This document shows positions 1 through 53,394 of a stretch of DNA of 64,000 nt, piece after piece. A model generated the notes under the pieces. That model was not told the origin of the DNA and did not search any database. It saw only the letters and a list, made by a program, of their open reading frames with translations. How positions within the stretch are numbered: position 1 is the stretch's first letter; every line of letters begins with the position of its first letter. The stretch is from Minisyncoccia bacterium (GTDB lineage: Bacteria; Patescibacteriota; Minisyncoccia; UBA6257; GWB1-50-10). The stretch covers positions 74,483-138,482 of the forward strand of contig JBEKVQ010000002.1 in NCBI GenBank assembly GCA_049997815.1, read 5' to 3'. The position numbers and the translations under genes were made by a program.

Positions 1-61
1 CGTAACGGCAGGACCCCTTTTTCGTTATAACTATTGACGCAGGAGAAACAGTCCTGTAGTT

Positions 62-70
62 TGTTACAAT
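62..70 (+). promoter_or_regulatory. Extended -10 promoter-like element TGtTACAAT upstream of the long leader of the surface-protein gene
   Basis: tgtTACAAT at 62-70; same TGn-TAnnnT pattern recurs at other promoters in the window. Confidence 0.3.
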
Positions 71-445: not shown

Positions 446-3400
446 ATGAGTAAATTAAGTCGAAAAGTTGTGGCGGTAGGCCTCACACTCACCACGGCCG
501 TTTGGCTCGCTGGTGCAGTGCTTCCGGCTTCCGCCCAAACCTCTGCGGCTACGATTGCCCAGTTAATGGCGCAAATCCAGGCTTTGCAGAGTCAGTTACA
601 GGCCCTTCAGGGTTCTGCGAGCACCCAATCATCTTCCTATAGCTTCACCAGGGACCTCACCCTTGGCAGCAAAGGAGCGGATGTGACGGCGCTTCAGCAG
701 TTCCTCGTGAGCGGCGCCTATCTACAGATGCCCGCCGGAGTGGCTTATGGCTACTTTGGTTCTTTAACGCAGGCAGCTGTGGTGCGCTGGCAGGGAGCTG
801 CCGGCGTCTACCCCACGGCCGGTTACTTCGGTCCTAAGAGCCGCGCGGCCATCGCTTTGGCCGTCGGTACGGGTACTGGTACTGGCACTGGGGGCGTAGT
901 TGTTTCCGGTCCGTCATCGGTGGCTTTGTCGCCGATGAATGTGGCGAACACGAACGTTCCGATTAACGTCGACACCACGCATTTTGAAGTGGTGCCGGTT
1001 TTGACGGTCCGCTTCACGGCCGGTCCGGCTCCTCTCACGGTCACTGGATTTAACGTCCAGCGCTCCGGTTTGTCCTCGGACCAGGATCTTGCGAACGTCT
1101 ATCTATTGGACGGTTCCAAGATCGTGACCACTAACATCGGTATGAACAACGGCCTCGTTCAATTCTCGAACGCCGCCGGTCTCTTCACGGTGAATGCGGG
1201 CACGTATAAGGATATTACAGTGGCGGTCTCCATCTCGATCTCCGCTACCGCTTCCGGCCACACTTACCAATTCTCCGTTCCTTCCGCGGCTTCAATAACC
1301 ACGGCGGGCGCGACGACGGTAGGCGGCGTGTTCCCGATTATGAGCAACACCATGACTGCCGCCTCGGTTACTAACCTCGGCGGAGTAACGGTCACGAACG
1401 GCTCGGCGGGTATCACGGCGGGTACGGCTCTTTCCGTAAACGCTGGTCAGGCAAAGTTCAATGCCGGCGTGTTCACCCTTCAGGCGAACAACCAGGCGGT
1501 TTCCGTGAAGTCAATCACTTTGACGAACACGGCAAGCTTGGGACCCTCTGATCTCGCGAATGTCACCCTTTATAACGGTGCGACGCAGGTCGGCACGGCA
1601 CAGGCAATCGGCGGTGCGAACCAGGTTACCTTCGATCTAACGGCTAACCCCCTACAGCTCTCGGCCGGGCAGAGCGTCCAGCTCTTCCTCTACACCGACA
1701 TTGTGGGCGGCGTGAACCGTTACTTCCAGTTCTCGGTTCAGCACAACTACGACATCGTGGCGACGGATATGATGTACAACATCGGATTCTTGCCGGCGAT
1801 GAACACCGGGAACTTCCCGATGAACTTGTCCTACGTCAGCGTTCAGCAGGGTACGCTCACGCTTACCCGCGATTTTGCCTCTCCGGTGAACTATGTTCTC
1901 CCGGGCGGGACGAATCAGACCATCGCGAAGTTTGACTTTGTGGCGGGCGGTGAAGCGGTGAAGATCACCCAGTTGAATGCAGTCCTGAATACCACGGCTA
2001 ACGTCACTAACCTCAAGGTTATTGATGACCAGGGTACGCAGATCGGCACGACCCAGGCTACGGTTGCAACGACCACGTATTACACGAACCTGAACTACTT
2101 GATCCCTTCGGGAACCAAGAGGGTGGTTTCGATAATCCTGGATGTCGGCACCAACTTCAGCGGCACCTTAACGGGTACCTTGAACAACATTGCGGGTCAG
2201 GGTTACACCTCGCTCGCGACGGTTCCCTCGACGGGCACGTTATCTTCAACGGGTAACACGCTCTCGGTTTCGGGCAGCATCCTGAGCGCTGGTTTGAACA
2301 GCGCGATGGGTAACACGAATGTCGTGTCGGGTCAGGTTAACGCGAGGATCGGCTCTTTCACTTTGACGGCTGGTCCCAGCTCCGGAGTGAATGTCTCGAA
2401 CTTCCAGTTCACGACGGCGGCGGCCTCGTATGATCCGGCCTCTAAGTACCAGAACGTGCGCTTGATGTATGGCAACACGCAGGTCGGCAACACGCAGAAC
2501 GTGTTGACGAACGGCGGTACCATCACCTTCAGCGCGGCTCAGCCGATCTTAATTCCGGCCGGCGGCCAGGTAATTCTTGATGTCTATGGAGACGTAAAGA
2601 CGGGCGCCGGTAGCGGCACCTCCACTCCGGGCATTGTGACTTTGGCCACGAACGGCGTTTCGGCGACGGCGGTGGCGACCACGCAATCCGTTTCTACGGT
2701 CACGGGTACTCCAACGCCCGGCCAGACGGTATTCTTAGTGGCGGCGGGTACGCTCGCCTTCAATGCCGGCAGTATGCCGGGCACAACGGCAGGCGCTACT
2801 CAGATTGGAATGGGTGTAACGGGTGTGAAGCTCGCTTCTTATCAGCTAACCGGCTCACCGAGCGAAGCGATCACTCTCAACAACGTTTACCTCACGTCCA
2901 CGTCGTCACTCACGGGCGCCTTCACCAACTTCCGGTTGATGAACGGTGCTACGCAGCTTGGCAGCGCTTTGTCCCCGAGTCAGTCGAGTTCGCCCTATAC
3001 CGTAACGTGGGTAGGTTTGAACCTTCCGATATCTCAGGGCGGCACGCTTACCTTGGATGTGGTGGCGGATGCGAACACGTATTCGGCGCTTTCCCAGGGT
3101 TATACGACCAGCTCGAACACCACAACGACGGTGTCGATCTATCAGCTTGACTACCAGGGAACGGCGTCCAACCAGACGGCGAGTGTGACCGGCACAGCTG
3201 TGTATGGCAATACCTTCGTTGCTGTCCGCAATACTTTGACGGCGGCGCTCGCGAGCGTACCGTTGGCTTCATCCGTGAGCGATGCCGCTAGCGTTGCAGG
3301 ATTCGCCTTCACGGCGGGTAATGCGGCAGGTACGCAGGACCCGGCTTACTTGAAGAGCATTGCGATCACCCAGATATACTCTGGCTTGAACTCGAGCTCT

Positions 3401-3760
3401 ACGATTCCTGTTACCTACCACGTCCTTGTTAATGGTCAGCAAGTAGCGACGGCTACTAGCACGACTCCTTCGGGAGGTTCCGCGACGCTTACCCTTAGCC
3501 AAGGGCCGGCGACATCGGGAGGACCCGGTGGCACGGCTGGTCTCATCATCACCAAGGGCACTTCCCAGACTCTCACGATCACGGCAGATCTGAGCTCGTC
3601 TCTGTTCACCGAAGCGACCCAGGGCGTGAAAGGACCCTATCAGATCAAGATGACGAATTACACTTGGTCCGATGGTACGATGGCGTCCATCAACGCGGAT
3701 CCGAACAATATCACTGCGACGAACCCGTTGTATGGCTCATCCGCTGCTCTCCAGTTCTAG
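446..3760 (+). CDS. Large secreted surface (S-layer-like) protein with signal peptide, coiled-coil, PG_binding_1-like domain, (GT)n linker and long Thr/Ser/Asn/Gly/Val-rich repeated beta-rich domains
   Basis: ORF 416-3760 (TTG at 416; ATG at 446 gives MSKLSRKVVAVGLTLTTAVWLAGAVLPASA-QT, a classic Sec signal with AXA site); IAQLMAQIQALQSQLQALQG coiled coil; GSKGADVTALQQFL...GYFGSLTQAAVVRWQ peptidoglycan-binding-like motif; GTGTGTGTG linker; recurring N[VF]xL[YM]NGATQ[VL]G modules. Confidence 0.85.
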   Translation: MSKLSRKVVAVGLTLTTAVWLAGAVLPASAQTSAATIAQLMAQIQALQSQLQALQGSASTQSSSYSFTRDLTLGSKGADVTALQQFLVSGAYLQMPAGVAYGYFGSLTQAAVVRWQGAAGVYPTAGYFGPKSRAAIALAVGTGTGTGTGGVVVSGPSSVALSPMNVANTNVPINVDTTHFEVVPVLTVRFTAGPAPLTVTGFNVQRSGLSSDQDLANVYLLDGSKIVTTNIGMNNGLVQFSNAAGLFTVNAGTYKDITVAVSISISATASGHTYQFSVPSAASITTAGATTVGGVFPIMSNTMTAASVTNLGGVTVTNGSAGITAGTALSVNAGQAKFNAGVFTLQANNQAVSVKSITLTNTASLGPSDLANVTLYNGATQVGTAQAIGGANQVTFDLTANPLQLSAGQSVQLFLYTDIVGGVNRYFQFSVQHNYDIVATDMMYNIGFLPAMNTGNFPMNLSYVSVQQGTLTLTRDFASPVNYVLPGGTNQTIAKFDFVAGGEAVKITQLNAVLNTTANVTNLKVIDDQGTQIGTTQATVATTTYYTNLNYLIPSGTKRVVSIILDVGTNFSGTLTGTLNNIAGQGYTSLATVPSTGTLSSTGNTLSVSGSILSAGLNSAMGNTNVVSGQVNARIGSFTLTAGPSSGVNVSNFQFTTAAASYDPASKYQNVRLMYGNTQVGNTQNVLTNGGTITFSAAQPILIPAGGQVILDVYGDVKTGAGSGTSTPGIVTLATNGVSATAVATTQSVSTVTGTPTPGQTVFLVAAGTLAFNAGSMPGTTAGATQIGMGVTGVKLASYQLTGSPSEAITLNNVYLTSTSSLTGAFTNFRLMNGATQLGSALSPSQSSSPYTVTWVGLNLPISQGGTLTLDVVADANTYSALSQGYTTSSNTTTTVSIYQLDYQGTASNQTASVTGTAVYGNTFVAVRNTLTAALASVPLASSVSDAASVAGFAFTAGNAAGTQDPAYLKSIAITQIYSGLNSSSTIPVTYHVLVNGQQVATATSTTPSGGSATLTLSQGPATSGGPGGTAGLIITKGTSQTLTITADLSSSLFTEATQGVKGPYQIKMTNYTWSDGTMASINADPNNITATNPLYGSSAALQF
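868..894 (+). repeat. In-frame (ggtacN)n microsatellite encoding a GTGTGTGTG linker
   Basis: ggtacgggtactggtactggcactggg. Confidence 0.6.
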
Positions 3761-3799
3761 TTCTTCCGAATCGGTTTCCTGATAGCGCATAATCAGGCA

Positions 3800-3837
3800 C
3801 CCCGCCAGTCCATTGGACTGGCGGGGTTTGTCTTTAT
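3800..3837 (+). terminator. Rho-independent terminator after surface-protein gene
   Basis: ccccgccagtcc-att-ggactggcgggg followed by tttgtctttat. Confidence 0.8.
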
Positions 3838-3850
3838 AGAATTAAATCTA

Positions 3851-4105
3851 ATGTTCTATGTTTATGTTTTGAAAAATAAATTCCGGCAGATTTATATCGG
3901 ATACACAGGAGATTTAAGATGAAGATTCAAGGACCATAATTCTGGCAGGTCAAAATATACGAAATTACGCCTACCCTGGACTCTGGCGTATTACGAGGCA
4001 TTTTTATCATCGAAAGATGCTAGAATTAGAGAAAGGACCCTGAAAAGTTATGGAAGTACTCTGGGTCAATTGAAAATAAGAATCAAAAATAGCCTAAACG
4101 GGTAA
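3851..4105 (+). pseudogene. GIY-YIG nuclease family (YhbQ/COG2827-like) gene interrupted by an in-frame TGA at 3920-3922
   Basis: Translation MFYVYVLKNKFRQIYIGYTGDLR*RFKDHNSGRSKYTKLRLPWTLAYYEAFLSSKDARIRERTLKSYGSTLGQLKIRIKNSLNG aligns along its length with the intact 94-aa GIY-YIG protein at 42083-42367 (FYYVYVIRSKKDGIWYTGFTPDLRKRFKEHN...ELIYYEASKNKADARSRERYLKSGMGKRYLKNRLKR); TGA is a genuine stop elsewhere in the window. Confidence 0.7.
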
Positions 4106-4138
4106 AAAGTATCAATGTGTAGCATATCTGTATTAATC

Positions 4139-4147
4139 TGTTATAAT
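4139..4147 (+). promoter_or_regulatory. Extended -10 promoter (TGtTATAAT) for the Wzy_C gene, flanked by direct repeats gtattaatc
   Basis: ctgtTATAAT at 4139-4147; gtattaatc at 4130-4138 and 4150-4158. Confidence 0.5.
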
Positions 4148-4165
4148 CCGTATTAATCCGTGTCT

Positions 4166-5533
4166 ATGGACTATTTAAAGATCTCGAAGCTCTTCCTGAA
4201 AATTTCGGTACTTTGTGTGGCGATTGTGACCGTTTCCACGCTTTTCCCGTTCATCGTCGGAAAATATTCCTGGTTCCGGGCGAGCGTGGATATCGCCCTA
4301 GTCTTTTTCTGTTTGGGGCTCATATTCCAACGGAACCTGGAACCGATCTGGGATCAGTTCCGGCGAATGTTTCGTTCGCCGCTCGTTTGGATGGTAACCT
4401 TGTTCATCGCCGTATTTCTTTTAGCTTGTCTTTTCGGCGTCAATCCTCACTGGTCTTTCTGGTCCAATTTCGAACGGGGCGAGGGGGGATTCCAAATGGT
4501 CCACCTTTACGTATTTTTTTTCCTTCTGGTTCTTTTGTTCCGTGAAGAAAAGGACTGGCAGAGCATCATGAAGTGGTTTTTAACCGGTGGTTTTTTGATG
4601 GTTCTCTACGGCGTGGCCGCGGGTTTCAAATGGTCCGGATTTGTAGGACCGGCTTTCGGTGATTCCGGTTATCGTTTTCAGGGATCTATCGGCAACCCCG
4701 CTTACGTTGCGATTTTTGCCGTATTTATGGTGTTTTATTGCCTATACCTGCTTTTTAACCGCTATCGCCAAAATTTGAAATCCGCCGGGGCCATAACTCT
4801 CTTCGTCCTACTTGCGGTCTTTCTCGCGACGTTCTTCGCGGCCGCGACCCGCGGCACTTTTGTGGGATTGATCGCGGCCATCGTGGTGTTTCTCGGATAT
4901 TTCGCCTACAGCCACAAGGCCTGGCGCAAACGAGCCCTCTTGGCCGGCATAGTAATTATCACCTTTGTGGTTATTATGGGAATCTTTAAAGACACTAAAT
5001 TCGTTCAAAGCATTCCCGGTTCGCGGGTCTTCGATCTTTCCGTGACCGCTCAGACTTTCAGCGACCGGGTCAAAATTTGGAATATGGCCTGGAACGGCTT
5101 TCTCGCCCGGCCGGTCTTGGGTTGGGGACCGGAAAATTTCATCCAGGTCTTTTATCGGTATTTCACTCCGGACTTCTTCTCGCCGAGTGTGGGATTCGGT
5201 GCCTGGTTCGACAGGGCTCACAGCTTCATCTTTGATTATCTGGCGGAGACGGGCGCGCTCGGGTTCCTGAGTTTTGCCGGCATCTTCGTCGCTTTCTTTT
5301 GGAAATTCTTCCGCTCTCAATCCCAGGATGCCGAAACGTCTTTTAGCCGAAGACCTCTCCTAGAAAGGTCCCTGATATTTGCTCTCCCGGTGGCCTATCT
5401 TGTCCAGGGATTGGTTTTGTTCGATGTTTTACCAATTTATATGAACATATTTTTCTTTATGGCTTTCGCGGTCTATTTATTTCAATCGGATCAGTCCCCA
5501 AAGAAAAACTCGCCGCAGTTTAGGCAATCATGA
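4166..5533 (+). CDS. O-antigen ligase / Wzy_C family polytopic membrane protein (candidate O-oligosaccharyltransferase or ligase)
   Basis: About 10-12 TM helices; RFQGSIGNPAYVAIF (R-x2-G-x3-NP-x3-A loop motif of WaaL/PglL/WsaB) and AHSFIFDYLAETGALG (conserved His + E-x-G motif); alternative GTG start at 4160. Confidence 0.8.
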   Translation: MDYLKISKLFLKISVLCVAIVTVSTLFPFIVGKYSWFRASVDIALVFFCLGLIFQRNLEPIWDQFRRMFRSPLVWMVTLFIAVFLLACLFGVNPHWSFWSNFERGEGGFQMVHLYVFFFLLVLLFREEKDWQSIMKWFLTGGFLMVLYGVAAGFKWSGFVGPAFGDSGYRFQGSIGNPAYVAIFAVFMVFYCLYLLFNRYRQNLKSAGAITLFVLLAVFLATFFAAATRGTFVGLIAAIVVFLGYFAYSHKAWRKRALLAGIVIITFVVIMGIFKDTKFVQSIPGSRVFDLSVTAQTFSDRVKIWNMAWNGFLARPVLGWGPENFIQVFYRYFTPDFFSPSVGFGAWFDRAHSFIFDYLAETGALGFLSFAGIFVAFFWKFFRSQSQDAETSFSRRPLLERSLIFALPVAYLVQGLVLFDVLPIYMNIFFFMAFAVYLFQSDQSPKKNSPQFRQS

Positions 5534-6141
5534 GAAGCTCGCTCAAATATATCCTTGCCGGCGTCTTGATCATTGCGGCGGTCTTCGCCACTGTTCGCGG
5601 TTCATTGCAGCCGTTCACGAAAGCCCAGCTTTTCATAAAGGGGCTAAAAAATCTTTCGAGCGTAAAAACACTCGATGATTTCACCGCCCAATTCGACGCC
5701 GTTTTCAACTATCCGTCGCCTGTCGGCAATGAAGAAGTAGCCAAGTTTTTGTCGGATCAGGTAACGAGCATCGTTTCCCAGCAAAGCCAGCCAGAAGACG
5801 TTTCCCGCGTCCTGGTTTCGTACATGGAGTCGCATATATCTCAGAATGATCTCCTGAGCCTTTTCACCATTGCCCATTTTCATGCGATCCTTTGGCAGAG
5901 GTTCCATAGGACAGAGGATTATTCGCAGGCGGAGCAGGCTCTGAAGAGGGCGCTTTCGATTGGCCCCGAGGTTCCTCCGGTGCTCTACAGCCTGGCCAGT
6001 CTCTATGCATCAGGCGGCGACAGGGTTAAGTTCGTGCAAACAGCCCAAACCATTCTTTCGTACTGGCCGGATGACACTCAATTAAAGAGCACTCTTGCAA
6101 ACCTTGCTTCGCCGGTTCCCGCCACCTCAGCCACTAAATAG
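5530..6141 (+). CDS. Hypothetical N-terminally membrane-anchored protein, possibly TPR-like C-terminus
   Basis: ATGA overlap with upstream stop; MRSSLKYILAGVLIIAAVFATV anchor; no recognised catalytic motif. Confidence 0.55.
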   Translation: MRSSLKYILAGVLIIAAVFATVRGSLQPFTKAQLFIKGLKNLSSVKTLDDFTAQFDAVFNYPSPVGNEEVAKFLSDQVTSIVSQQSQPEDVSRVLVSYMESHISQNDLLSLFTIAHFHAILWQRFHRTEDYSQAEQALKRALSIGPEVPPVLYSLASLYASGGDRVKFVQTAQTILSYWPDDTQLKSTLANLASPVPATSATK

Positions 6142-6154
6142 CACCGAAAGTGCA

Positions 6155-16857: not shown

Positions 16858-16858
16858 C

Positions 16859-26601: not shown

Positions 26602-28071
26602 ATGATAGAAAACCTAAAAAACCTTTTCTTTGATCAGAAAAGCCAAAAGAAGACCGTTTTAAAGAATTTTCTGTGGTTGGGAACCAGTCAGGTTGGAGGC
26701 CGACTCATTAGAGGCATAATCACGATTTATTCTGCGCGCGCCTTGGGAACTGCTGGCTACGGCGTATTTTCCTATGCGATGGGACTTGCCGCTTTCTTTA
26801 TTTTTTTCAAGAACATCGGCGTGGACTCCATCCTAACTAGGGAAGTAGCACACCGGCCGTCGGAAAGAGATAGATTATTTGCGACCTCATTCTGGCTGGA
26901 GGTTGGTTTGCTCGTGATTACCGCGCTCCTCCTCCTTTTTGTGGCTCCGCTTTTTAGTCACATTCCCGAAGCTCTCGCCTTGATTCCGGCAGTGACCCTA
27001 ATGATCGTGGCGGATGATATGAAAGATCTTTTTATCGCTTTCTTCCGAGGAATAGAAAAAATGGAATGGGAAGCCGTGGTCACCGTTGCCTCCAATGTCG
27101 CCGTAGTTGTATTCGGTTTTGGCGCTCTCTTAATCTCGCCGACGCCGCTCTACCTTGCCTTGGCTTATGCTGCCGCCTCCGTTTTCGGGGTTCTTTTGGC
27201 CGGCGGCATAATTTTCGTCCGTCATGTTCGGGGGTTTTTCAAGAGTTTTGATAGCGGTTTGATTGCGCCCATTTTAATATCGGCCTGGCCGATCGCCATA
27301 GGGGGGCTGGCTGGCTTGTTCTTCTTTAATGTGGATATTATCATGCTGGGCTTTTGGCGAACCACCGATGATGTCGGTATCTATGCGGCCGTTCAAAAGA
27401 TTGTGGGTATTCTTTCGGTGATTCCGACCCTGATTATAACCAGCACCTTCCCGGTTTTTTCTAGGCTGGCCCATCAGAATGATTCGGTGCGAATGCGCCA
27501 GGCCATGGAAAGCGTAATTCGCATTCTTTTCCTGTTCTCGGTACCTCTTGTCTTGGGTGGCATTGTATTGGGTGCCCCCCTCCTGAACTTCATTTTCGGA
27601 AACGCTTACGGTTCGGGGGCAAGCGCCATGTCTATACTTTTGATTTCCATAATCGCCTCTTTCCCAACCGGCCTATTCTCTTATTTCATATTTGCCTATG
27701 ATAAGCAGCGCAAGATGGTTTTATATCCGATTATCGCCGCGCTGATCAACATTGGCCTGAATTTATTTTTGGTTCCTCGTTTTGGCATGATCGGCGCCTC
27801 GGTGGCAACCCTTACAACAAGCGTGATTTACTTTTTCTTGCTCTTCCAGCTTTGCTTGAAGATTGAACCGTTCTCATTATGGAGGGGATTCTCAAAGATT
27901 CTGGGTGTAGCGATACTCATGGCAATTTTTGCCTGGGTAATTCAATTGTCGGGCGTGCCAGTGCTCGCGAATATCGCTCTTTCCGCTGGGCTATACCTGT
28001 TCATTCTTAAGGTCCTAAAAGAAGAATCCCTGGAGGAGATTCTTTCTATGGTTCGTTCGACGCGGAGTTAG
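26602..28071 (+). CDS. Wzx-like oligosaccharide flippase (MOP/polysaccharide biosynthesis protein family)
   Basis: About 12-14 TM helices; paralogue of 42408-43880 (KKTVLKNFLWLG...IYSARALGTAGYGVFSYAMGLAAFF). Confidence 0.75.
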   Translation: MIENLKNLFFDQKSQKKTVLKNFLWLGTSQVGGRLIRGIITIYSARALGTAGYGVFSYAMGLAAFFIFFKNIGVDSILTREVAHRPSERDRLFATSFWLEVGLLVITALLLLFVAPLFSHIPEALALIPAVTLMIVADDMKDLFIAFFRGIEKMEWEAVVTVASNVAVVVFGFGALLISPTPLYLALAYAAASVFGVLLAGGIIFVRHVRGFFKSFDSGLIAPILISAWPIAIGGLAGLFFFNVDIIMLGFWRTTDDVGIYAAVQKIVGILSVIPTLIITSTFPVFSRLAHQNDSVRMRQAMESVIRILFLFSVPLVLGGIVLGAPLLNFIFGNAYGSGASAMSILLISIIASFPTGLFSYFIFAYDKQRKMVLYPIIAALINIGLNLFLVPRFGMIGASVATLTTSVIYFFLLFQLCLKIEPFSLWRGFSKILGVAILMAIFAWVIQLSGVPVLANIALSAGLYLFILKVLKEESLEEILSMVRSTRS

Positions 28072-40760: not shown

Positions 40761-42086
40761 TTAGAAATGAGAAACGAAGACGTATTTTACGGTCTTGAAG
40801 ATAATAATGAAATCGAGGAAGATCGAACGATTCTTCACGTAATAGATGTCGTAGCACAGTTTTTCGTAGGCTTCTTCCAAAGAGGCACTGGGTTTGTAGT
40901 TTATCTGCGCCCAGCCGGAGAGCCCCGGTTTGATGATGTGGCGGATTTCGTAATAGGGGAATTTACTGAAAGTTTCCGCCAGTTCCACCCGCTCGGGCCT
41001 GGGGCCGGTGAACGAGATATCGCCCTTCGCGATATTCCAGAGCTGGGGGATCTCGTCAAAATGGGTGAACCGGAGAGCTCTACCAAAGGCCGTTATCCTT
41101 GGGTCTTTCTCTTCAGTCCATGCCGGCGTACCGTCCTTACCGCCTCTCCATGTATTCATGGTGCGAAATTTGAAAAGATTAAAGGTTCGGTTATTTTTTC
41201 CCATTCGTTCTTGCTTGAAGATGGCCGGTCCCCTCGAGGTGACTTTTATGAGGAATGCGAAAACCAGACCGAAAGGCAGGAAAATGATTCCCAATATAAT
41301 GGAGAGCACGACGTCCGTTAGCCGCTTGAAAGCATCGTAAAACGGCCGGTGGGTTGAGATTTTCTCTATGAACCAATTTTCTTCGAGGTCTTTCAACGGC
41401 ACTTTCTCGAAAAGAATTTCGTAAAAGTCCCAGGCATTCACCAAGTTCACTTCAGTGGGGAGAAGCTGAAACACGGTTCTGAGGGTAGAAAAATCCTTGG
41501 CAATGTTGGGTTGGATGATGACTGTGTTTATTTTCTTGTCTTTTATCATCTTAGCCAAAGATGCAACGTCATTCTCCTTCAGGCTCCCGATTTTTTCGGC
41601 GATTTGGTATCCGGCGTGGGGATTCTTCTGGATGTACGACTCGATGTCGTTTAAGAGGGGAGCATCGCCGAGGATCATTATTTTGGTGGCGCCGGCGGTG
41701 AAAATATTCAGTACTAGTATTCTCCAGGCCCAGTTCACCAGGAGGAAGACGGCGCAAAGAATGAGAAGGTTGATTTTTGGCGTCAGTTCGAAAAGCTGCC
41801 CAAAGAGATAGAAGGCGGTAATGGAGACAATGCCGCTTAATACAACCGCTCCCGCAGTGCGTTTAAAGATAATGAACTTGTTTTGGAGTTCGCTGTATTG
41901 GTAGAAATTGGAGAGATAGAAAATTATCACCCAGGCGATGAAAATCAGGGAAAAAGGATAGAGATGACTTCGGAAATAGAAATTGAACTCTCCCACGGGA
42001 TAACGGATTAAGAGGGTTACCGCCAGGGAAAGGTATAGGGCGACGATATCGCCCAAAAGGAGAATAAACTTTTTCAGGCCTTTCAT
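40761..42086 (-). CDS. Polyprenyl-phosphate sugar-1-phosphate transferase (WbaP/EpsL-like bacterial sugar transferase), initiating enzyme
   Basis: N-terminal TM bundle + C-terminal KRLTDVVLSIILGIIFLPFGLVFAFLIKVTSRGPAIFKQERMGKNNRTFNLFKFRTM. Confidence 0.85.
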   Translation of the reverse strand: MKGLKKFILLLGDIVALYLSLAVTLLIRYPVGEFNFYFRSHLYPFSLIFIAWVIIFYLSNFYQYSELQNKFIIFKRTAGAVVLSGIVSITAFYLFGQLFELTPKINLLILCAVFLLVNWAWRILVLNIFTAGATKIMILGDAPLLNDIESYIQKNPHAGYQIAEKIGSLKENDVASLAKMIKDKKINTVIIQPNIAKDFSTLRTVFQLLPTEVNLVNAWDFYEILFEKVPLKDLEENWFIEKISTHRPFYDAFKRLTDVVLSIILGIIFLPFGLVFAFLIKVTSRGPAIFKQERMGKNNRTFNLFKFRTMNTWRGGKDGTPAWTEEKDPRITAFGRALRFTHFDEIPQLWNIAKGDISFTGPRPERVELAETFSKFPYYEIRHIIKPGLSGWAQINYKPSASLEEAYEKLCYDIYYVKNRSIFLDFIIIFKTVKYVFVSHF

Positions 42087-42407: not shown

Positions 42408-43880
42408 TTAACCTAATATCGATCTCCGAACGCCAAGGTGCCCGAGGATGGGTTCTTTGGTCGCATAAAGTACGCCGGCGAAGATGAGTCCGGACACTAA
42501 CACGTTTAGTACGATGTTCAGTCCCAAAAGAAGGAGAGAAAAAGTGGCTGCTCCCATGAGTACGGTAGCCAGAATCGTTCTTGAAAGGTGGGGCCATATG
42601 GAAAATGGCTGAATTTTCTTCAGATAAGTCCAGTTGATTATATTCACCAATATTTGCGCGATAATGGTGGCGACGGCCGAACCGGCGATGCCGTAGATCG
42701 GAATGAAGATCAGGTCCAATCCAGTGTTGGCGAGTGCCCCAACGCTGGTTGAGAGGATGAATATCTTCTGTTTGTCGTAGGCGAATATGAGATTGCCGAT
42801 GACCGTGCCGGGGAAGACGAGAAGGGTGGTAATAAGAAGGAGCTGGAATGTCAGCGTGGCATCCAAGTACTCCGGCCCGAATATCAGGCCGACGAGCGGC
42901 TGGCCGGCGATGATGCCGCCGATCGTAATGGGCAGAGCAACCGCGATCACGGCCGTTATGGAGGTCTCTATCACCTTCTTCGCCGCTTCGTGCCGGTTCT
43001 CGTGGACGAGTCTGCTGAAAATTGGGAAGACGCTCGCCGCGAATAAACTTGGGAAGAGGTAAAGAAGCTGCACCGGCCTTTGGGCCGCCGCGTAGAGGCC
43101 AATCTCTCCAGCGCTCCGGAAGATTCCGATTATGACCGTGTCTATGTTTATCATGAACCCTCCGAGGAGCCCGATTATGGCAAACGGCCAGGCCTTGGTA
43201 ATGATCGGTTTCACGAGTTTCCTGTCGAAGTTGGTTAGGATTCCCTTGAACTGTTTTCTTAGGATGAAGAAGACCAGACAGAACCCAATGATGGTTCCGG
43301 CTGTGTAGGCCTCGGCCAACTCTTTGGGATGGGGAGCTACGAGCAGGGATATTATGCCCAGGGCAGTAATGAAGACGTCGGTCGCGATGCCCAACCCCGC
43401 TTCCCACTCCATCTTGTTTCGGGCTCTTGTAATCGAAAAGCCGAAGGTGCGAAGGTTATCGAAGATGAGGAGCAAGACAACGAAGGGAAGGAGAGGTCCT
43501 ATGTCGACCGCCCTGGAGACGAGGGGATAGATGGCGATCATCAGGATGGTCGCTAAGGCCGTGAAGACGAGTTTCAGGAAAAAGGTGGTGGAGAGATATG
43601 CCGAGACCTTGTCCGGATTCTTGATAGTTTCGCGGGTAAGCAAGGGAGAAAGGCCAATATCGGTGAGTATTCCGAAAAAGGCGGCCAAACTAAGGGCGTA
43701 GGAAACGATGCCGTAGCCCTCAGTTCCCAGAACGCGGGCGGCATAGATGATAAGGACCGCCCGGATGAGGCGGCTAACCGTAGTGCCGGCCGTGAGCCAA
43801 AACGTGTTCTTCAGTACCGTCTGTTTGAGCGAAGTGTTCTCGAAGAGGAGGGACTTGATTTTCCCCAGATTGACTTTCAT
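42408..43880 (-). CDS. Wzx-like oligosaccharide flippase, second paralogue
   Basis: Start set at MKVNLGKIKSLLFENTSLKQTVLKN by alignment with 26602 paralogue (ORF extends to 44066). Confidence 0.7.
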   Translation of the reverse strand: MKVNLGKIKSLLFENTSLKQTVLKNTFWLTAGTTVSRLIRAVLIIYAARVLGTEGYGIVSYALSLAAFFGILTDIGLSPLLTRETIKNPDKVSAYLSTTFFLKLVFTALATILMIAIYPLVSRAVDIGPLLPFVVLLLIFDNLRTFGFSITRARNKMEWEAGLGIATDVFITALGIISLLVAPHPKELAEAYTAGTIIGFCLVFFILRKQFKGILTNFDRKLVKPIITKAWPFAIIGLLGGFMINIDTVIIGIFRSAGEIGLYAAAQRPVQLLYLFPSLFAASVFPIFSRLVHENRHEAAKKVIETSITAVIAVALPITIGGIIAGQPLVGLIFGPEYLDATLTFQLLLITTLLVFPGTVIGNLIFAYDKQKIFILSTSVGALANTGLDLIFIPIYGIAGSAVATIIAQILVNIINWTYLKKIQPFSIWPHLSRTILATVLMGAATFSLLLLGLNIVLNVLVSGLIFAGVLYATKEPILGHLGVRRSILG

Positions 43881-43898
43881 TTTGGTTACGGTTAAAAT
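43870..43898 (+). promoter_or_regulatory. Promoter TTGACT-17-TAAAAT for DsbA-like gene, overlapping the divergent flippase start
   Basis: ttgact 43870-75; taaaat 43893-98. Confidence 0.45.
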
Positions 43899-43913
43899 TC
43901 TATCACAAATATT

Positions 43914-44630
43914 ATGGAACCTGAAAAACAAAAACGCGATTATCTTTTGCCGGCCAGCATCCTGATCGCCGGTCTTATGGTGACAGTAGCCCTGGTTTAC
44001 AATGCCGGGAAGAAGACCGAGAATCAGGCGGCAAACCTGGCCGACTCTGCTGCGGCGAGCGCCCAACTTCCATCGCCCGCCAACATGAAACCAATTTCAG
44101 AGGCCGATCACATCTTGGGTGATCCTAACGCGCCGTTGAAGATAGTTGAGTTCTCCGACTTGGAATGCCCGTTCTGCAAGGTATTTCATGCCACATTGCA
44201 CCAAGTGATGCAAACTTATGCCGGTAAGATAGCTTGGATTTATCGCCAGTTCCCGATCCCGCAGCTCCATCCGAAGGCACCGCACGAGGCCCAGGCGGCC
44301 GAGTGCGCGGCGAAGCTGGGCGGGAACGACAAGTTCTGGGCTTTTATAGATAACGTTTTTGAGATTACGCCGTCCAATAACGGTTTGGATCCGGCGGAGC
44401 TTCCAAAGATTGCCAGCAATATCGGTTTGGATGTGGCTCAGTTCAATTCCTGCCTCGCAAGCACCTATGGTCAGGATAAGATTCAGAATGACACGGCGGA
44501 TGCGGGAAATTCCGGCGCGCAGGGTACCCCCTACGCTGTTGTGGTCAACAGTTCCGGAAAGAAGTTCGTGATTAACGGGGCCTTGCCTTTTGACCAGGTT
44601 AGTGCTATCATCAACACGGCTTTAAAATAA
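43914..44630 (+). CDS. DsbA-family thiol:disulfide oxidoreductase (thioredoxin fold), membrane-anchored
   Basis: ECPFCKVFH CxxC motif; N-terminal TM segment. Confidence 0.8.
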   Translation: MEPEKQKRDYLLPASILIAGLMVTVALVYNAGKKTENQAANLADSAAASAQLPSPANMKPISEADHILGDPNAPLKIVEFSDLECPFCKVFHATLHQVMQTYAGKIAWIYRQFPIPQLHPKAPHEAQAAECAAKLGGNDKFWAFIDNVFEITPSNNGLDPAELPKIASNIGLDVAQFNSCLASTYGQDKIQNDTADAGNSGAQGTPYAVVVNSSGKKFVINGALPFDQVSAIINTALK

Positions 44631-47147: not shown

Positions 47148-48671
47148 ATGAAGGACAAAAGAATCATTTTTTTATTACCGCTCCTGGCCGTCGACCTTTT
47201 ATTGTTTAACGTTACTCTCGCCTTCACTGGTCCGGGAACCCTGCAACCCGGTTCGGGCGGCGGACTTCTTTTCAGTTCCAGTACGTACATTGGCATCGGG
47301 ACGACGAATCCCGCCGTAACCCTGCATGTCGTAGGAGGAGTTGGAGGAATAAACATCGCTCGTTTTTCTCGTACCAATGGCGCTACCACTGATTCTTTCT
47401 TTTCTGGGTCCGGCGGTTCTTCTTTTGTGGGTTTCACCGATAATGCCAGCGTATCTTGGAGTTTAGGTAGTGATAATGGTGATAGTAGTAAGTTCAAAAT
47501 ATCAAAAAGCATCGATCTTGGTTCTAATTATTATCTAACCATTGATGATGCAAATGGGAACGTCGGCATCGCGACCACCTCTCCCACCTATCCGCTCACG
47601 GTGAATGGGAGCGTGTACTCGACAGGGAATTTTATCGGGGGTCTTTCAGGAACGCTCACTGCCGGGAATATTACCGGTCCCACGGCATTCGGTGCGACCT
47701 TCCAGACTGCTCCTCCCGTCGGATATGTATACGCCTTCCCGCAGGCGCTCGCAGTGGGAACGACGACGGTCGCCGGTTTGCAGACGAATATGTTGTTCGC
47801 GGCCGGTAACGTCGGTATCGGAACGACGGCACCGGTAACAAAATTGGATGTTTCTGGAGCTATAACTGCAAGAGGTGCTAATCCGGGCGGAATCGGCGCG
47901 AATGCTACGGTACTGGATTTTAGCGGAGGAACCGCTCGGTGGTTTAGTTATGGACCAGATGCTTCTACGAACGGCATATTTCAACTTTATTCTCAGAGAA
48001 GCGATGGAACAAATAATATAATTCCAGTCACAATTTTAGGAAATGGCAACGTCGGCATCGGGACGACGGGGCCGGGAGGTATGTTGCATGTAAGAGGTAA
48101 CGGTGTCGCCCAGCCGATGGTAATTGTTGAGGATTATTCTGCTGCCAGCAATCCTGCTATCCAAATAAAGAACGACACGACAAATTGGTTTTTGGAAACG
48201 GTTGGGGCACGAAGCAATAATTTTGAAATTTCGCACGGTGGCGGTGCGGCATCAAATTCATTTCTGGCAATTCAAACGAACGGCAACGTCGGCATCGCAA
48301 CCACCACGCCTAAATATCCACTCTCGGTCAATGGCTCTTATTATTCGGTTGAGCTTGATAAGGGAAACTCCGGTGCTGCTATAACGATTGACTGGAGTGC
48401 AGGCAACACCCAGCACGTAATTTTGACGTCTGGTCCAGGGACTCCCGTAGCTCTCACGTTCACGAATCCCCAGCCGGGTGCCCGCTATACGCTTATTCTG
48501 AAACAAGACGGCACTGGCGGAAGAACCGTGACCTGGCCCGCGACCTTCAGAACTGGTTCGGCCGGACCCATCACTCTCTCGACAGCGCCCAACGCGACTG
48601 ACTACGTGGGTCTTCAGTACAACGGCGTGGACGGAAAATACGATAACGTCGCCTTCAACGCGGGATTCTAA
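47148..48671 (+). CDS. Secreted repeat protein with five about 80-aa tandem repeats carrying GNVGIGTT(x)P motifs
   Basis: Signal peptide MKDKRIIFLLPLLAVDLLLFNVTLAFTG; repeats YIGIGTTNP / GNVGIATTSPTYPLTVNGS / GNVGIGTTAPVTKLDVSGA / GNVGIGTTGPGGMLHVRGN / GNVGIATTTPKYPLSVNGS. Confidence 0.8.
   Translation: MKDKRIIFLLPLLAVDLLLFNVTLAFTGPGTLQPGSGGGLLFSSSTYIGIGTTNPAVTLHVVGGVGGINIARFSRTNGATTDSFFSGSGGSSFVGFTDNASVSWSLGSDNGDSSKFKISKSIDLGSNYYLTIDDANGNVGIATTSPTYPLTVNGSVYSTGNFIGGLSGTLTAGNITGPTAFGATFQTAPPVGYVYAFPQALAVGTTTVAGLQTNMLFAAGNVGIGTTAPVTKLDVSGAITARGANPGGIGANATVLDFSGGTARWFSYGPDASTNGIFQLYSQRSDGTNNIIPVTILGNGNVGIGTTGPGGMLHVRGNGVAQPMVIVEDYSAASNPAIQIKNDTTNWFLETVGARSNNFEISHGGGAASNSFLAIQTNGNVGIATTTPKYPLSVNGSYYSVELDKGNSGAAITIDWSAGNTQHVILTSGPGTPVALTFTNPQPGARYTLILKQDGTGGRTVTWPATFRTGSAGPITLSTAPNATDYVGLQYNGVDGKYDNVAFNAGF
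47285..48520 (+). repeat. About 240-nt (80 aa) in-frame tandem repeats x5 within the secreted protein gene
   Basis: ggNaacgtcggNatcg recurs at 47557, 47805, 48045, 48282 (plus a variant at about 47290). Confidence 0.7.
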
Positions 48672-51600
48672 CGAAATTACTTTTCAGGTCTCGTCGGATG
48701 CGGCGGAGGTTTTTGGCAATCAGCCGCCCGACAGCGTTCGGGCTGAATTTTTTTATAATGTCGCTTTGAGCGACCATCCCTTTGCGCGCCGCTATCTCGC
48801 GGTTCTCGTATATCAATCGCATTCGCCTCGCCGCTTCGTGTTCGTCCGGCTCCGCCCATTCGTTTCCCTGCCGGTAGATGCCGTAATCCCGCTTCAGGGG
48901 AACCAGTTTGTAGTTTATGGGGAAGCTGTTCATCTCATTCATGAAATCCGCGTTCCCGGACCAGTTGGTGGCGATGACCGGCTTCCGGAGAGCCATCGCT
49001 TCGGCGAGCGGCAGGCCGAACCCTTCCGAGCGGTGAAGAGAAACGTAGCAGTCGCAGACGTTCAATAAACTCGCGATCTCTTCGCGGGCCAGATAGCGGG
49101 GGATAAGGTGGATATTGTGTCCTTTCGCGGCGTCCTCGAGAAGCCGAAAATTTTTCGGTTCGACCTTGGGATTGGAACACTTTATAACAAGATGAACGAG
49201 CTCTTCCGAAGAGAACGCTTCCTTGAAGGCGCGGATGGCCGCGAGCGGATTTTTTCTCTCAAAGATGCTGAAGAAATCGAACATAGAGAGGAAGAGGATA
49301 TGTCCTTCGGGCAGTTCGAAGTGCGCGCGGGGGAAAGGATGTCGTCCCACCTCAATGGCGTGGGGGATGACGGTAACGGGGATGTCAGGCCTTAGGCGCT
49401 TTACGGCATCTGCCACGAAAGAACTCGGCACCCAAACTTCGTTTACGCGGTCAAGGAGCTTGCCCCATTCGGGCGGCATCTCCGGAAGTTCCCAGGCCCA
49501 ATAGGCGATATTGTATTTGCCGGCGAATCTCTCTTCCCCGAAGTTTTCGAGTTCTATCCCGAACATGTCCCCGTAGATGGCGATGAGATTTACCCGATAG
49601 GGATTGGTCTTGGCGAATCTTTTGGAAAATTGATTCTCGTTCCGCCGGTGGGGAACGCGGGGACTATTGAGGAGGGCGGAGGGAATGCCGGCCTGGTCCA
49701 CGGCGCGGATAAGGGTCCGAGCGGCTTCGCCGACGCCGCTTTCGGAGTCCAGAAACCCGAAGATATTCACTCCACTTCTGGCGTCTCGCCTGGAATATCT
49801 TTCGGATAAGCGATTGCCGGGGGAATCGGCAATTCGGATTTTGTCCAAGCTTTCCTGGTTTTCTTCGCGAGTCTCCCCGGTTTTTCTTAACTTCTCTCTC
49901 TGCTGTTCCGCCGAAAAACTTTCCACATCGATTTTCCCGGCTCGGCGGTTGTAGAGTAGGTGCATTCTGGTGGTGAGATATTTCACAGGACCGTACTCCA
50001 GATACATCTTCGAATATAGTTTTACGAAGAATGTCGGTTTGCCGCGGACGAGTTTTTTGGGATTGATGCGTCCCAGAACCGCATTTTGAATATGTGAACC
50101 CTCGCGTCGGAGCGTTTCCATTACCTCGGCCGGAAACGGTTTCCCCGTTTGTGTCTCGATCGCGCGGAGATAGAAGAAAAGTTGGGAGAGGGCGTTGCTC
50201 CGTCTTCCCTCATCGATAACCTCCCGCCAGTTCGGTTCGTTCTCCTTTAGGAAGCTTGCGGCGGCGGTTATCCTTCGGCCACACTTTTTGAATTGCTTCG
50301 GAAAGTGGTAATAAGAAAGTTCAAGGCATAAAAGGCAAGCATCGGTCACGAGCGCACCGGGACCGTTTTGAAGAGCCATGTCCGAGATTGATGAGAGCGA
50401 GAACGGTAGATTCGAGAGGCGTTCGGAGAGGGACAATCTGTCGCCCTGCCTCATCATATTCACGGGCGGCAGGATGACGCGGTGTTTGAAGAGATTAAAG
50501 ACGGGCAGAACCATCCTGTGTTTTGCGAAGTTATAGACGGGCAGAACCATCCTGTGCTTTACCCAGTTAAGGGGAGGAATGAATATCGGCAGGATGATCT
50601 TGTGTTTCAGAAAATTGTATGGGGGTAGTACCACCCTGTGTTTCACGAAATTGAACGGGGGGAGAAATAACGGCAGCACCACCCTGTGTTTCATATAGTT
50701 GAAGGCCGGAAGGATAATCTTGTGTTTCGCATATTCCAGAGATGGAGGAAGACGGTGGTACTTTTGCATCGGCCGCTTGGTGGCGCGCCGGGGTTCCGCG
50801 GGAACGGTGAACCTGTTTTTTTGTTTTTCTATCCAGGCCCTTACCGGGGTGGTGTCCTGAGCAGCAAGCTCCAAAATGAATTGGTCGGTTCTCTTCCGGC
50901 TTCGCTGTATCTTCCGTCGTTCCTTGAGGGTGTTTGGCAAATGCAGGATATTCCATCCCAGAGCCAAAAACGGGATTGAAACGTATGTGAGTTTCTTTCC
51001 CAAAGGGATCTGATATTTGCTGGTCTGGAAATATCCGACAATGGCGAACCAATAGCCGATGAGTACGTACGAAATTTGCCTGGGGAGTTCGGGCGCCCCG
51101 TAGTTCTTGATGGCCGATCGCAGGGCGTTTTTCTTGCAGAGATAAAGTTTTTTGTATTGGGCTCCCCGATAACTCGCGCTGTGTTTGTGATAAATGACGG
51201 CGTCTTTTTCGAAGAATATGTCGTAGCCCATGAGGTTGGCGCGCCAGCTCCAGTCCAGGTCCTCGAAATAAGCGTTGAATTTCTCGTCGAGAAATCCGAC
51301 CTTCCGGAGCGCGTCGGCGCTTATAAGCGACGCTCCCCAGCACGCCCCCAATACCTTAGAGCTCCTTTTCTTGCCGAACTGCCTCTGAAGGCCGAAGTTA
51401 GCGTCGTAACCGTCGCCGTTCCAGTCTATCGTTCCGCCTTGGCTGTTTATTATCTCCGGATGATTGTAAAAGAGCATATTGGAGGTTACCGCGGCGATGT
51501 TTGGGGCGCTCTTCGCTCTCCGGACGAGTGCGGCAAGCCAAGCGCTCTCGGCTCTCGTATCATTGTTCATGACGGCGATGAAACCGGGATGGTACTTCTG

Positions 51601-51840
51601 GAGGGAATAGCGCAGTCCCGCATTCACCGTGCGGGCGAAGCCCCGATTTCGGGGAAGAATGAGAATGTCCACTTCCGGAAAATTCGCGCGGAGATATTCC
51701 TCGGTGTCATCGGTCGAAGCATCGTCGGCGACGACGGTCTTAAAGTTTTGGTACGATTGTCCGCGCAGGGAACGTAAGCATTCATCGAGAAGCTGTCTGC
51801 CGTTGTAGGAGGGGATGACGATTATCGTTTCGTAGGCCAT
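48655..51840 (-). CDS. Multi-domain glycosyltransferase: N-terminal GT2 + central 12-aa tandem-repeat module + C-terminal GT4
   Basis: IVIPSYNGRQLLDECLRSLRGQSYQNFKTVVADDASTDDT (GT2); PAFNYMKHRVVL/PPFNFVKHRVVL/PPYNFLKHKIIL/PPLNWVKHRMVL/PVYNFAKHRMVL/PVFNLFKHRVIL repeats; RSEGFGLPLAEAMALRKPVIATNWSGNADF (GT4). Start set at ATG 51840 (MAYETIIVIPSYNG), 8 nt after upstream stop; ORF extends to 51936. Confidence 0.8.
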   Translation of the reverse strand: MAYETIIVIPSYNGRQLLDECLRSLRGQSYQNFKTVVADDASTDDTEEYLRANFPEVDILILPRNRGFARTVNAGLRYSLQKYHPGFIAVMNNDTRAESAWLAALVRRAKSAPNIAAVTSNMLFYNHPEIINSQGGTIDWNGDGYDANFGLQRQFGKKRSSKVLGACWGASLISADALRKVGFLDEKFNAYFEDLDWSWRANLMGYDIFFEKDAVIYHKHSASYRGAQYKKLYLCKKNALRSAIKNYGAPELPRQISYVLIGYWFAIVGYFQTSKYQIPLGKKLTYVSIPFLALGWNILHLPNTLKERRKIQRSRKRTDQFILELAAQDTTPVRAWIEKQKNRFTVPAEPRRATKRPMQKYHRLPPSLEYAKHKIILPAFNYMKHRVVLPLFLPPFNFVKHRVVLPPYNFLKHKIILPIFIPPLNWVKHRMVLPVYNFAKHRMVLPVFNLFKHRVILPPVNMMRQGDRLSLSERLSNLPFSLSSISDMALQNGPGALVTDACLLCLELSYYHFPKQFKKCGRRITAAASFLKENEPNWREVIDEGRRSNALSQLFFYLRAIETQTGKPFPAEVMETLRREGSHIQNAVLGRINPKKLVRGKPTFFVKLYSKMYLEYGPVKYLTTRMHLLYNRRAGKIDVESFSAEQQREKLRKTGETREENQESLDKIRIADSPGNRLSERYSRRDARSGVNIFGFLDSESGVGEAARTLIRAVDQAGIPSALLNSPRVPHRRNENQFSKRFAKTNPYRVNLIAIYGDMFGIELENFGEERFAGKYNIAYWAWELPEMPPEWGKLLDRVNEVWVPSSFVADAVKRLRPDIPVTVIPHAIEVGRHPFPRAHFELPEGHILFLSMFDFFSIFERKNPLAAIRAFKEAFSSEELVHLVIKCSNPKVEPKNFRLLEDAAKGHNIHLIPRYLAREEIASLLNVCDCYVSLHRSEGFGLPLAEAMALRKPVIATNWSGNADFMNEMNSFPINYKLVPLKRDYGIYRQGNEWAEPDEHEAARRMRLIYENREIAARKGMVAQSDIIKKFSPNAVGRLIAKNLRRIRRDLKSNFVRIPR
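50462..50757 (-). repeat. 36-nt (12-aa) tandem repeat x about 8, with two 12-nt insertions, coding the KH[RK]hhLP..N.. module
   Basis: gacgggcagaaccatcctgtg... repeated on + strand; protein repeats listed above. Confidence 0.8.
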
Positions 51841-51848
51841 CTTGTCGC

Positions 51849-52568: not shown

Positions 52569-52571
52569 GGT

Positions 52572-53342: not shown

Positions 53343-53394
53343 GGTAGACTCAGGCTTGCGGGTCAAACCCATTCGTCATTATAGTTATTATATT

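Follow-up and report, generated by a model that had tools for sequence, protein, structure and literature searches.

The 64,000-nt stretch of Minisyncoccia bacterium DNA analyzed here (contig JBEKVQ010000002.1, positions 74,483 to 138,482 of the forward strand; hereafter, the window) carries near its start three genes encoding, in this order, a secreted surface protein, a membrane protein of the Wzy_C family and a small protein with a tetratricopeptide repeat (TPR)-like domain. With a probability that we put at roughly 0.5, the Wzy_C and TPR proteins would form a two-part O-oligosaccharyltransferase (O-OTase) glycosylating the neighboring envelope protein, in analogy to SgsE/WsaA/WsaB. This reading is favored because the residues shared with WaaL and PglL face outward, because the Wzy_C protein is conserved above the glycosyltransferases (GTs) encoded further downstream, because it comes with a TPR subunit and because the gene order recurs across the class. 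A first-pass annotation, made from the letters of the window, had already likened the locus to the slg (S-layer glycosylation) loci of Geobacillus and Paenibacillus. The class-wide adjacency of the genes, the TPR partner, the independent termination of the surface gene, the catalytic residues and a Thr-rich linker all sustain that idea, in which the protein nature of the acceptor, its identity with the surface protein and the identity of the glycan are what we infer.

The Wzy_C and surface-protein open reading frames (ORFs) were both found where the first-pass annotation had placed them. Initiation of the Wzy_C gene at the ATG at 4166 yields a 455-residue product matching a recorded protein; a GTG start (457 residues) was discarded, as it gave no exact database match. 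The product matched Pfam Wzy_C (PF04932) over residues 215-370 with 58.8 bits (cut-off 31.7), in agreement with the first-pass assignment. The only solved relative found by the family profile was the WaaL ligase of Cupriavidus metallidurans (7TPG/7TPJ; E 1.4e-9), which was also the top structural match of an AlphaFold2 (AF2) model of P0105, a natural Wzy_C+TPR fusion 53% identical to the window protein (predicted local distance difference test [pLDDT] 89.4, predicted template modeling score [pTM] 0.90). No alignment was obtained by hhalign between the family profile and E. coli K-12 WaaL or the O16 polymerase WbbH, a result that favors neither a ligase nor a polymerase. In the hidden Markov model (HMM) alignment to 7TPG, R229, R301 and H352 fell on R191, R265 and H313 of C. 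metallidurans WaaL, and all three were invariant in the 34 homologues (49-80% identity) used to assess residue conservation. The corresponding Arg/Arg/His residues are important in E. coli WaaL (R215/R288/H338) and conserved in Neisseria meningitidis PglL as R224/R298/H349 (PMC3643930); a model of PglS is given in PMC12800693.

Altogether, some 70 residues were invariant across the 34 homologues, among them FPFIVGKY (27-34), SxFERGEGG (100-108), R170 with IGN (175-177), T228-R229-G230, R301, P316, G319-W-G-P-E323, GAWFDRAH (345-352), D357 and G363. The motifs R170-x2-G173-x3-N177-P178, H352 and E361-x-G363 were kept throughout, as expected from the His and E-x-G motifs listed in the first-pass annotation. 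The same annotation had called the RxxGxxxNP loop diagnostic of the family; the loop is present and conserved, but it could not be convincingly aligned with the solved WaaL. The residues for which a known catalytic counterpart can be assigned are R229, R301 and H352. The protein has 12 hydrophobic segments, with 16 Lys+Arg in the 70 residues of the inside loops and 12 in the 140 residues of the outside loops. In this topology every invariant motif (R170, N177, R229, R301, G319-W-G-P-E323 and H352 included) lies in a predicted outside loop, which bears out the extracytoplasmic position anticipated for the R170/N177 loop. The protein is predicted to have a GT-C_B fold with an extracytoplasmic catalytic loop. 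It shares with C. metallidurans WaaL the Arg/Arg/His set, 12 transmembrane (TM) helices and a large outer loop harboring the His residue. It differs from it in overall sequence (16-18% identity), in the additional FPFIVGKY and SxFERGEGG motifs and TPR subunit of its family, and in context, no lipid A-core pathway being seen in the window: none of the window ORFs was of the lpx/waa type, and the NCBIfam WaaL models were unmatched.

The start codon of the TPR gene overlaps the stop codon of the Wzy_C gene (ATGA); the first-pass annotation had not noticed this third gene. In 84 of 86 loci a TPR homologue came next after Wzy_C, in many of them through an identical ATGA junction; in eight, the two were fused in frame. 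Sampled members of the wider Wzy_C family, which comprised 2767 clusters at 50% identity in an exhaustive profile search (E<=1e-30) and whose members are mostly 640-850 residues long, were likewise Wzy_C+TPR fusions. Pairwise distances of the two proteins in 34 genomes were correlated (r=0.82; partial r 0.79 when controlled for ClpB, an imperfect proxy for phylogeny), and the high pTM of the fused P0105 model suggests one compact body. The overlap, the fusions, the co-evolution and the pTM of the fused model together lead us to regard the two gene products as a single enzyme. Given its N-terminal anchor (MRSSLK followed by a TM segment), the TPR-like domain is predicted to lie outside the membrane.

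The surface protein consists, from N- to C-terminus, of a signal peptide, a helical peptidoglycan-binding domain, a short disordered linker and about 950 residues of beta structure (Table 1). An alternative TTG start exists at 416; the start at 446 is preferred because homologues begin with MSK. The PG_binding_1 match confirms the peptidoglycan-binding domain reported in the first-pass annotation. The protein is rich in Thr (14.3%), Ser (10.3%) and Asn (6.5%), has a pI of 5.8 and contains no Cys; Ser+Thr account for 24.6% of its residues versus 11.3% in 17 other window proteins, and Lys+Arg+Asp+Glu for 5.8% versus 22.4%. The Thr/Ser/Asn-rich composition was thus as first described; the repeats with which it had been associated are not of low complexity. 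The AF2 model, built with 40 homologues, is instead beta-rich (mean pLDDT 80.9), and the motif N[VF]x[LV]..G.TQ[VIL]G recurs at residues 217, 372, 522, 670 and 828, that is every ~150 residues, indicating about six diverged tandem beta units. Foldseek comparison of the model to the PDB returned only generic Ig-like strings (TM ~0.15), including PrgB, integrins and mastigoneme, with the S-layer protein Sap of Bacillus anthracis at ranks 20 and 40; no similarity to a named S-layer family was detectable in the protein.

The family to which the surface protein belongs numbered 418 homologues detected in Patescibacteria, of ~1060-1300 residues, with a strikingly constant length (median 1120 residues) and a median Ser+Thr content of 25.9%. 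In all 40 aligned homologues, the equivalent of the linker was a poly-T, (GT)n or (TP)n stretch of low complexity, 29-87 residues long and with a median Ser+Thr content of 31.5%. Such low-complexity Thr-rich segments being typical O-glycosylation sites, residues 141-154 of the modeled window protein would most likely be the target, and loops exposed on the beta array are additional candidates; judged from composition, the linker and the high Ser+Thr content would make the protein a suitable acceptor. Proteins with peptidoglycan-binding domains are reported to be highly expressed in Paceibacteria (PMC10936435). They could not be equated with the present family, the single gene checked being 2079 nt long. 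The 445-nt leader 5′ of the surface gene has a structured look, with two hairpins (112-139 and 186-206); scanning the window, leader included, against Rfam and for tRNAs returned no matches.

Scanning one genome per GTDB species yielded 80 loci with 38-56% identity to the window Wzy_C protein, 53 of which extended at least 7.5 kb upstream and were retained for counting gene order. A surface-protein homologue of at least 900 residues was encoded just upstream of Wzy_C on the same strand in 44 of them (83%; HMM search); by BLAST, 43 loci had a surface homologue upstream, directly adjacent in 24. The recurrence of this order in 44 of 53 species-level genomes is more than chance. In many relatives the cassette is preceded by genes for an HtrA-like protease, in some cases a 210-residue PG_binding_1 protein, ClpB and a 245-residue hypothetical protein (e.g. 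at 1-6280 of loci L001-L003). The glycan genes that follow it vary from locus to locus, with GT9, GT10 and radical-SAM (S-adenosylmethionine) genes in others. Across 42 full species-level loci, median identity to the window was 71% for ClpB, 49% for Wzy_C, 36% for TPR and 29% for the surface protein, and most of the individual downstream GTs were present in only 3-22 loci. A Wzy_C protein more conserved than both the surface protein and the GTs would be expected of a transferase that tolerates different donors but keeps one acceptor, and not of a polymerase. Distances of the surface protein were correlated with those of Wzy_C/TPR, with a partial r of 0.34 when controlled for ClpB (Mantel p 0.0005), which we regard as weak evidence.

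Under the O-OTase reading, the 1104-residue protein would be exported by the Sec pathway and held in the wall through its N-terminal PG_binding_1 domain, from which the chain of beta-sandwiches would project. Assembly of a glycan on undecaprenyl phosphate would take place in the cytoplasm, initiated by the Bac_transf enzyme of the window and continued by its GT4/GT2 enzymes, methyltransferases, carbamoyltransferase and sugar-nucleotide enzymes, before a Wzx flippase and/or Wzm/Wzt moved the lipid-linked product outward. On the outward-facing side of the membrane, the Wzy_C/TPR enzyme would then transfer the glycan en bloc from undecaprenyl pyrophosphate to Ser/Thr hydroxyls of the surface protein, with R229 and R301 holding the pyrophosphate, H352 acting as the base, and the TPR protein recruiting or positioning the protein acceptor. 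The disordered Thr-rich linker would be the main target, and exposed loops of the beta array additional ones.

The nearest precedent is found in S-layer glycosylation. The Wzy_C proteins WsaB and WsfB serve as O-OTases for S-layer proteins; a C-terminal TPR is described for WsfB and PglL, while in Geobacillus stearothermophilus NRS 2004/3a the TPR is provided by WsaA, a separate 168-residue ORF adjoining wsaB, and the S-layer gene sgsE adjoins the slg cluster and is monocistronic (PMC2943079). The slg loci further combine a WbaP-like initiator (WsaP), Wzm/Wzt and a multidomain GT (WsaE), to which Paenibacillus alvei adds an AsnB homologue (PMC2943079). The window resembles these loci in pairing a Wzy_C enzyme with a TPR module, whether separate small ORF or fusion, in placing the putative target gene close by as a separate transcription unit (here by way of a terminator), in encoding a WbaP-like initiator, an ABC transporter, a multidomain GT, methyltransferases and an AsnB homologue, and in belonging to a monoderm-type envelope. 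The likeness to WsaB/WsfB themselves is drawn from their published description (Wzy_C core and TPR). Differences are that the window protein carries PG_binding_1 and not S-layer homology (SLH) domains, that it shows no detectable similarity to a named S-layer family, that the TPR gene lies downstream and not upstream of Wzy_C, that two Wzx flippases are present, and that the cassette is class-wide rather than strain-specific. A second set of relatives, PglL, PilO (TfpO) and PglS, shares the GT-C_B fold, the Arg/Arg/His residues and a P-x2-G-x-G motif with the window protein, and pglL/pilO adjoin the target gene in 21 of 31 cases (PMC3643930), often in the same orientation, as seen here in 44 of 53 loci. 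The window protein differs from PglL in lacking PglL_A, Wzy_C_2 and a counterpart of H400/E404/P406, and from the PglL/PilO systems in that its presumed target is not a pilin and its TPR is a separate subunit. TPR-bearing protein glycosyltransferases are also known from eukaryotes (the TMTC1-4 O-mannosyltransferases and OGT/SPINDLY); a generic TPR fold is all that they share with the window proteins, donors and GT-C subclass being different, and they provide an analogy only.

Several observations weigh against a protein O-OTase. The structural evidence comes from P0105, 53% identical to the window protein, and not from that protein itself. The window Wzy_C protein had no Pfam match to PglL_A (PF15864) or Wzy_C_2 at E<=1, and the region corresponding to PglL H400/E404/P406 reads YLVQG..LFD, without H-x3-E-x-P, so that the PglL affinity put forward in the first-pass annotation found no support at the level of this motif. 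Among NCBIfam families at E<=10 it gave only noise, its relatives producing sub-threshold matches to the IctB family. No Ser/Thr position in the beta array was invariant across homologues and therefore no sequon is recognizable there. Nine of the 53 loci had no surface gene upstream, pairing being frequent but not obligatory; RNase Y preceded the Wzy_C-TPR pair in four of these (L026, L049, L065 and L069, at ~8.0-10 kb). In Firmicutes, genes for S-layer and other surface proteins adjoin wall-polymer loci for reasons of anchoring. The two Wzx flippases of the window make a polymerase role conceivable, as pathway logic allows for a Wzx/Wzy route. Finally, protein O-OTases and ligases acting on lipids or glycans are not distinguishable from sequence alone (PMC3643930).

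In the main rival reading, the Wzy_C/TPR pair would be a ligase for a non-protein glycoconjugate of the envelope, transferring a polymer from undecaprenyl pyrophosphate to a membrane glycolipid, as a TacL-like lipoteichoic acid (LTA) ligase would, or to another wall acceptor; the surface protein would be a mere neighbor owing to the clustering of envelope genes. TacL of Streptococcus pneumoniae is indeed an O-antigen-ligase-like LTA ligase, the fold and catalytic residues of the window protein are those of WaaL, which transfers glycan to a glycolipid, and the PglL-specific motif is missing. The nine loci that keep the pair in the absence of the surface gene, the adjacency of S-layer and wall-polymer genes in Firmicutes and the very large size of the family (2767 clusters), which would suit a housekeeping function in the envelope, also speak for such a ligase. 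We nevertheless hold it to be rather unlikely. A TPR suggests a protein partner and is described for the O-OTases WsfB and PglL and for WsaA; the order of surface gene and Wzy_C persists in 83% of the loci of a deeply diverged class while other neighbors change; and the surface-protein family carries a Thr-rich disordered linker. As the surface protein has its own PG_binding_1 domain, there is no obvious need for a secondary anchoring polymer. An explanation of the SLH type, in which such a polymer anchors the protein, was down-weighted on account of this direct peptidoglycan-binding domain.

The remainder of the window (58 kb) encodes glycan synthesis, including GT4 and GT2 enzymes, SAM-dependent and FkbM methyltransferases, a B12-radical-SAM enzyme, sugar-nucleotide dehydratases, epimerases, an aminotransferase, RmlC, two transketolase-like sets, the AsnB homologue, a carbamoyltransferase and SGNH/GDSL acyl-modifying enzymes. 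The Wzm/Wzt transporter, WbaP-like initiator, giant multidomain GT and numerous methyltransferases described in the first-pass annotation were all recovered by Pfam/NCBIfam. Its argument that an ABC-dependent pathway dispenses with a Wzy polymerase did not survive, two Wzx flippases also being encoded in the window. Judging from its domains, the phosphoglycosyltransferase at 40761-42086 is likely the initiator of the lipid-linked donor, and flippase 1 is a possible exporter of the lipid-linked glycan. That the Wzy_C protein is instead the repeat-unit polymerase of this Wzx pathway is suggested by the presence of two flippases and a WbaP/WcaJ-like initiator, by its being the sole Wzy-like multi-TM protein in the 64 kb, and by the inclusion in Pfam Wzy_C of some polymerases, such as TuaE of Bacillus subtilis. 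This alternative is nonetheless improbable. Conservation (38-56% identity, ~70 invariant residues) is too high for a serotype-specific enzyme among loci with differing GT sets, the Arg/Arg/His set of ligases is retained, and Wzy proteins are not known to have a TPR subunit of their own. Moreover, the repeat-unit polymerase model TIGR04370 scored 7.9 bits against a cut-off of 40, neither O-ag_pol_Wzy nor EpsG was matched in Pfam at E<=1, Wzy_C being the sole Pfam family found in the protein, and no Wzz/polysaccharide co-polymerase (PCP) chain-length regulator was present among the window ORFs scanned.

A second Wzy_C+TPR paralogue (742-923 residues) was inserted between the surface gene and Wzy_C in 17 of the 53 loci. 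The additional copies lie at ~6-10 kb in each of L019, L022, L034, L042, L046, L048, L050, L054, L071, L079 and L081-L085, at 12007-13335 in L043 and at 5286-9240 in L062, some loci having an extra tandem short paralogue. Acinetobacter offers a case of a pilin-specific enzyme coexisting with a general O-OTase. The many related loci with two or three tandem Wzy_C(-TPR) paralogues could be read in this light, the window enzyme being, in a variant of the main reading, a general or type IV pilin-specific protein O-OTase for which the neighboring protein would be one substrate among many, or none. The coexistence of a general with a pilin-specific O-OTase in the same organism is described in PMC9829042, and the general OTase PglL of Neisseria is not encoded adjacent to pilE (PMC3643930). 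This reading appears less probable still than that of a polymerase: the window holds one Wzy_C copy in 64 kb, which corresponds to the paralogue most consistently placed after the surface gene, and no pilin gene was found near the cassette in Pfam scans of the window.

The components and logic seen here are already known and do not amount to a new kind of system; new are the anchoring through PG_binding_1, the split two-subunit enzyme, the class-wide conservation and the occurrence in a lineage for which we found no published description. CPR (candidate phyla radiation) bacteria, or Patescibacteria, represent a large part of bacterial diversity, and their envelope is almost uncharacterized at the molecular level. 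They are regarded as devoid of outer membrane and lipopolysaccharide. For these bacteria, no paper about Wzy_C enzymes, S-layer proteins or the glycosylation of proteins was retrieved in a literature search, and current annotations read "O-antigen ligase family protein" and "peptidoglycan-binding protein". If the O-OTase reading is correct, the three-gene cassette of Paceibacteria names a candidate main surface glycoprotein and a testable enzyme pair, with R229, R301 and H352 as predicted catalytic residues and the Thr-rich linker as predicted target. The Wzy_C+TPR design of O-OTases, known from few Firmicutes, would then extend to the 2767 clusters of the wider family, a possible source of donor-tolerant O-OTases for glycoengineering. 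More tentatively, and with less confidence than for the enzyme as such, the 1100-residue protein might be the major S-layer-like glycoprotein of Paceibacteria and the Wzy_C+TPR pair its dedicated O-OTase, in a class-wide, vertically inherited cassette building the distinctive coat of these ultra-small episymbionts, to which the variable downstream genes would add strain-specific chemistry serving to recognize hosts or evade phages. If so, no CPR envelope glycoprotein and its glycosylation machine would have been identified at the molecular level before. Were the pair a wall or lipid ligase, the cassette would still mark the step at which envelope glycopolymers are attached.

Table 1. Features of the three-gene cassette and of the downstream glycan genes (nucleotide positions in the window; aa, residues of the surface protein).
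Feature	Position	Strand	Evidence and remarks
Secreted surface protein gene, proposed glycan acceptor	446..3760	+	ORF, 1104 aa
Signal peptide, Sec-type	aa 1-30		Cleavage between ASA and Q, aa 30/31
Predicted helix	aa 35-54		AF2, low confidence
PG_binding_1 domain, helical	aa 77-134		Pfam 26.3 bits, cut-off 23
Disordered (GT)n linker codons	866..907	+	aa 141-154, AF2 pLDDT <50
All-beta array	aa 155-1104		AF2, ~950 residues of beta structure
Intrinsic-terminator-like hairpin and T-tract	3799..3837	+	Stem-loop 3799-3827, begins 39 nt past the surface-gene stop
GIY-YIG nuclease-domain ORF, 84 codons	3851-4105	+	Pfam E 2.3e-13; in-frame TGA at 3920-3922
Wzy_C (GT-C_B, WaaL-like) glycan transferase gene, proposed catalytic subunit	4166..5533	+	455 aa, 12 TM
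Membrane-anchored TPR-like protein gene, proposed acceptor-binding/scaffolding subunit	5530..6141	+	203 aa, Pfam TPR_19 26.9 bits
Wzx/MOP flippase 1	26602..28071	+	Pfam Polysacc_synt 133.8 bits; weak NCBIfam Wzx_EPS
Polyprenyl-phosphate glycosylphosphotransferase, WbaP/WcaJ-like	40761..42086	-	Pfam Bac_transf 194.6 bits; TIGR03025 323 bits, above cut-off
Wzx/MOP flippase 2, adjoins phosphoglycosyltransferase	42408..44066	-	Pfam Polysacc_synt 118.9 bits, from aa 84
wzm-wzt-GT operon	48655..53372	-	Second, ABC-dependent glycan route
GT2+GT4 two-domain glycosyltransferase, 1093 aa	48655-51936	-	Pfam Glycos_transf_2, Glycos_transf_1
wzt ATPase	51849-52568	-	Pfam ABC_tran
wzm ABC-2 permease	52572-53372	-	Pfam ABC2_membrane

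The surface and Wzy_C genes are separated by a 405-nt spacer. The terminator hairpin within it is formed by a 13-bp stem (10 GC pairs) closed by a 3-nt loop and precedes TTTGTCTTTAT, and the surface gene therefore appears to constitute its own transcription unit. The first-pass annotation had endowed the Wzy_C gene with its own promoter, a claim that we regard as unproven given that promoter-like matches in the spacer (four) were no more numerous than expected from shuffled sequence (4.4). The spacer also harbors the interrupted GIY-YIG ORF, which, in-frame TGA included, was identical in three independent assemblies. Intact homologues occupy the same position in loci L047 and L080, where Ala replaces the TGA, and the copy in L077 is truncated. 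The ORF probably represents a small gene of selfish or mobile nature in decay, read-through being the alternative.

Among the glycan genes, the listed TTG start of flippase 2 (44066) overlaps a thioredoxin gene on the opposite strand, and its true start is thus probably located further downstream. The two transketolase-like sets (one split into N- and C-terminal halves, the other fused), the B12-binding radical-SAM enzyme and the carbamoyltransferase are encoded at 16036-17794, 20759-22567, 23826-25340 and 59889-61688, and suggest unusual branched, C-methylated or carbamoylated sugars. A thiol-redox/copper island made of a DsbA/thioredoxin-like protein, a thioredoxin-reductase-like flavoprotein and a cupredoxin lies amid the glycan genes at 43914-47142. 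Between the cupredoxin and giant GT genes, positions 47148-48671 (+) encode a 507-residue secreted protein with repeated GNVGIGTTxP and a tail-fiber- or collagen-like look, for which no Pfam or NCBIfam match was found.

The source organism is a CPR bacterium, represented by a metagenome-assembled genome (MAG) of Patescibacteria (Paceibacteria/Minisyncoccia), and the Wzy_C protein was 100% identical to a protein that NCBI attributes to a "Minisyncoccia bacterium"; it was present in three independent assemblies, on contigs of up to 396 kb. Its relatives were all from Patescibacteria, mostly of the Paceibacteria type (Jorgensen-, Wolfe-, Brenner- and Liptonbacteria). The same Patescibacteria-specific cassette was met on contigs deposited as MAGs of a "Spirochaetia bacterium", a "Nanoarchaeota archaeon" and an "Acidobacteria bacterium" (L020, L057 and P0186), and many other contigs carrying it are labeled "uncultured Candidatus Saccharibacteria"; these names probably reflect errors of binning or labeling.

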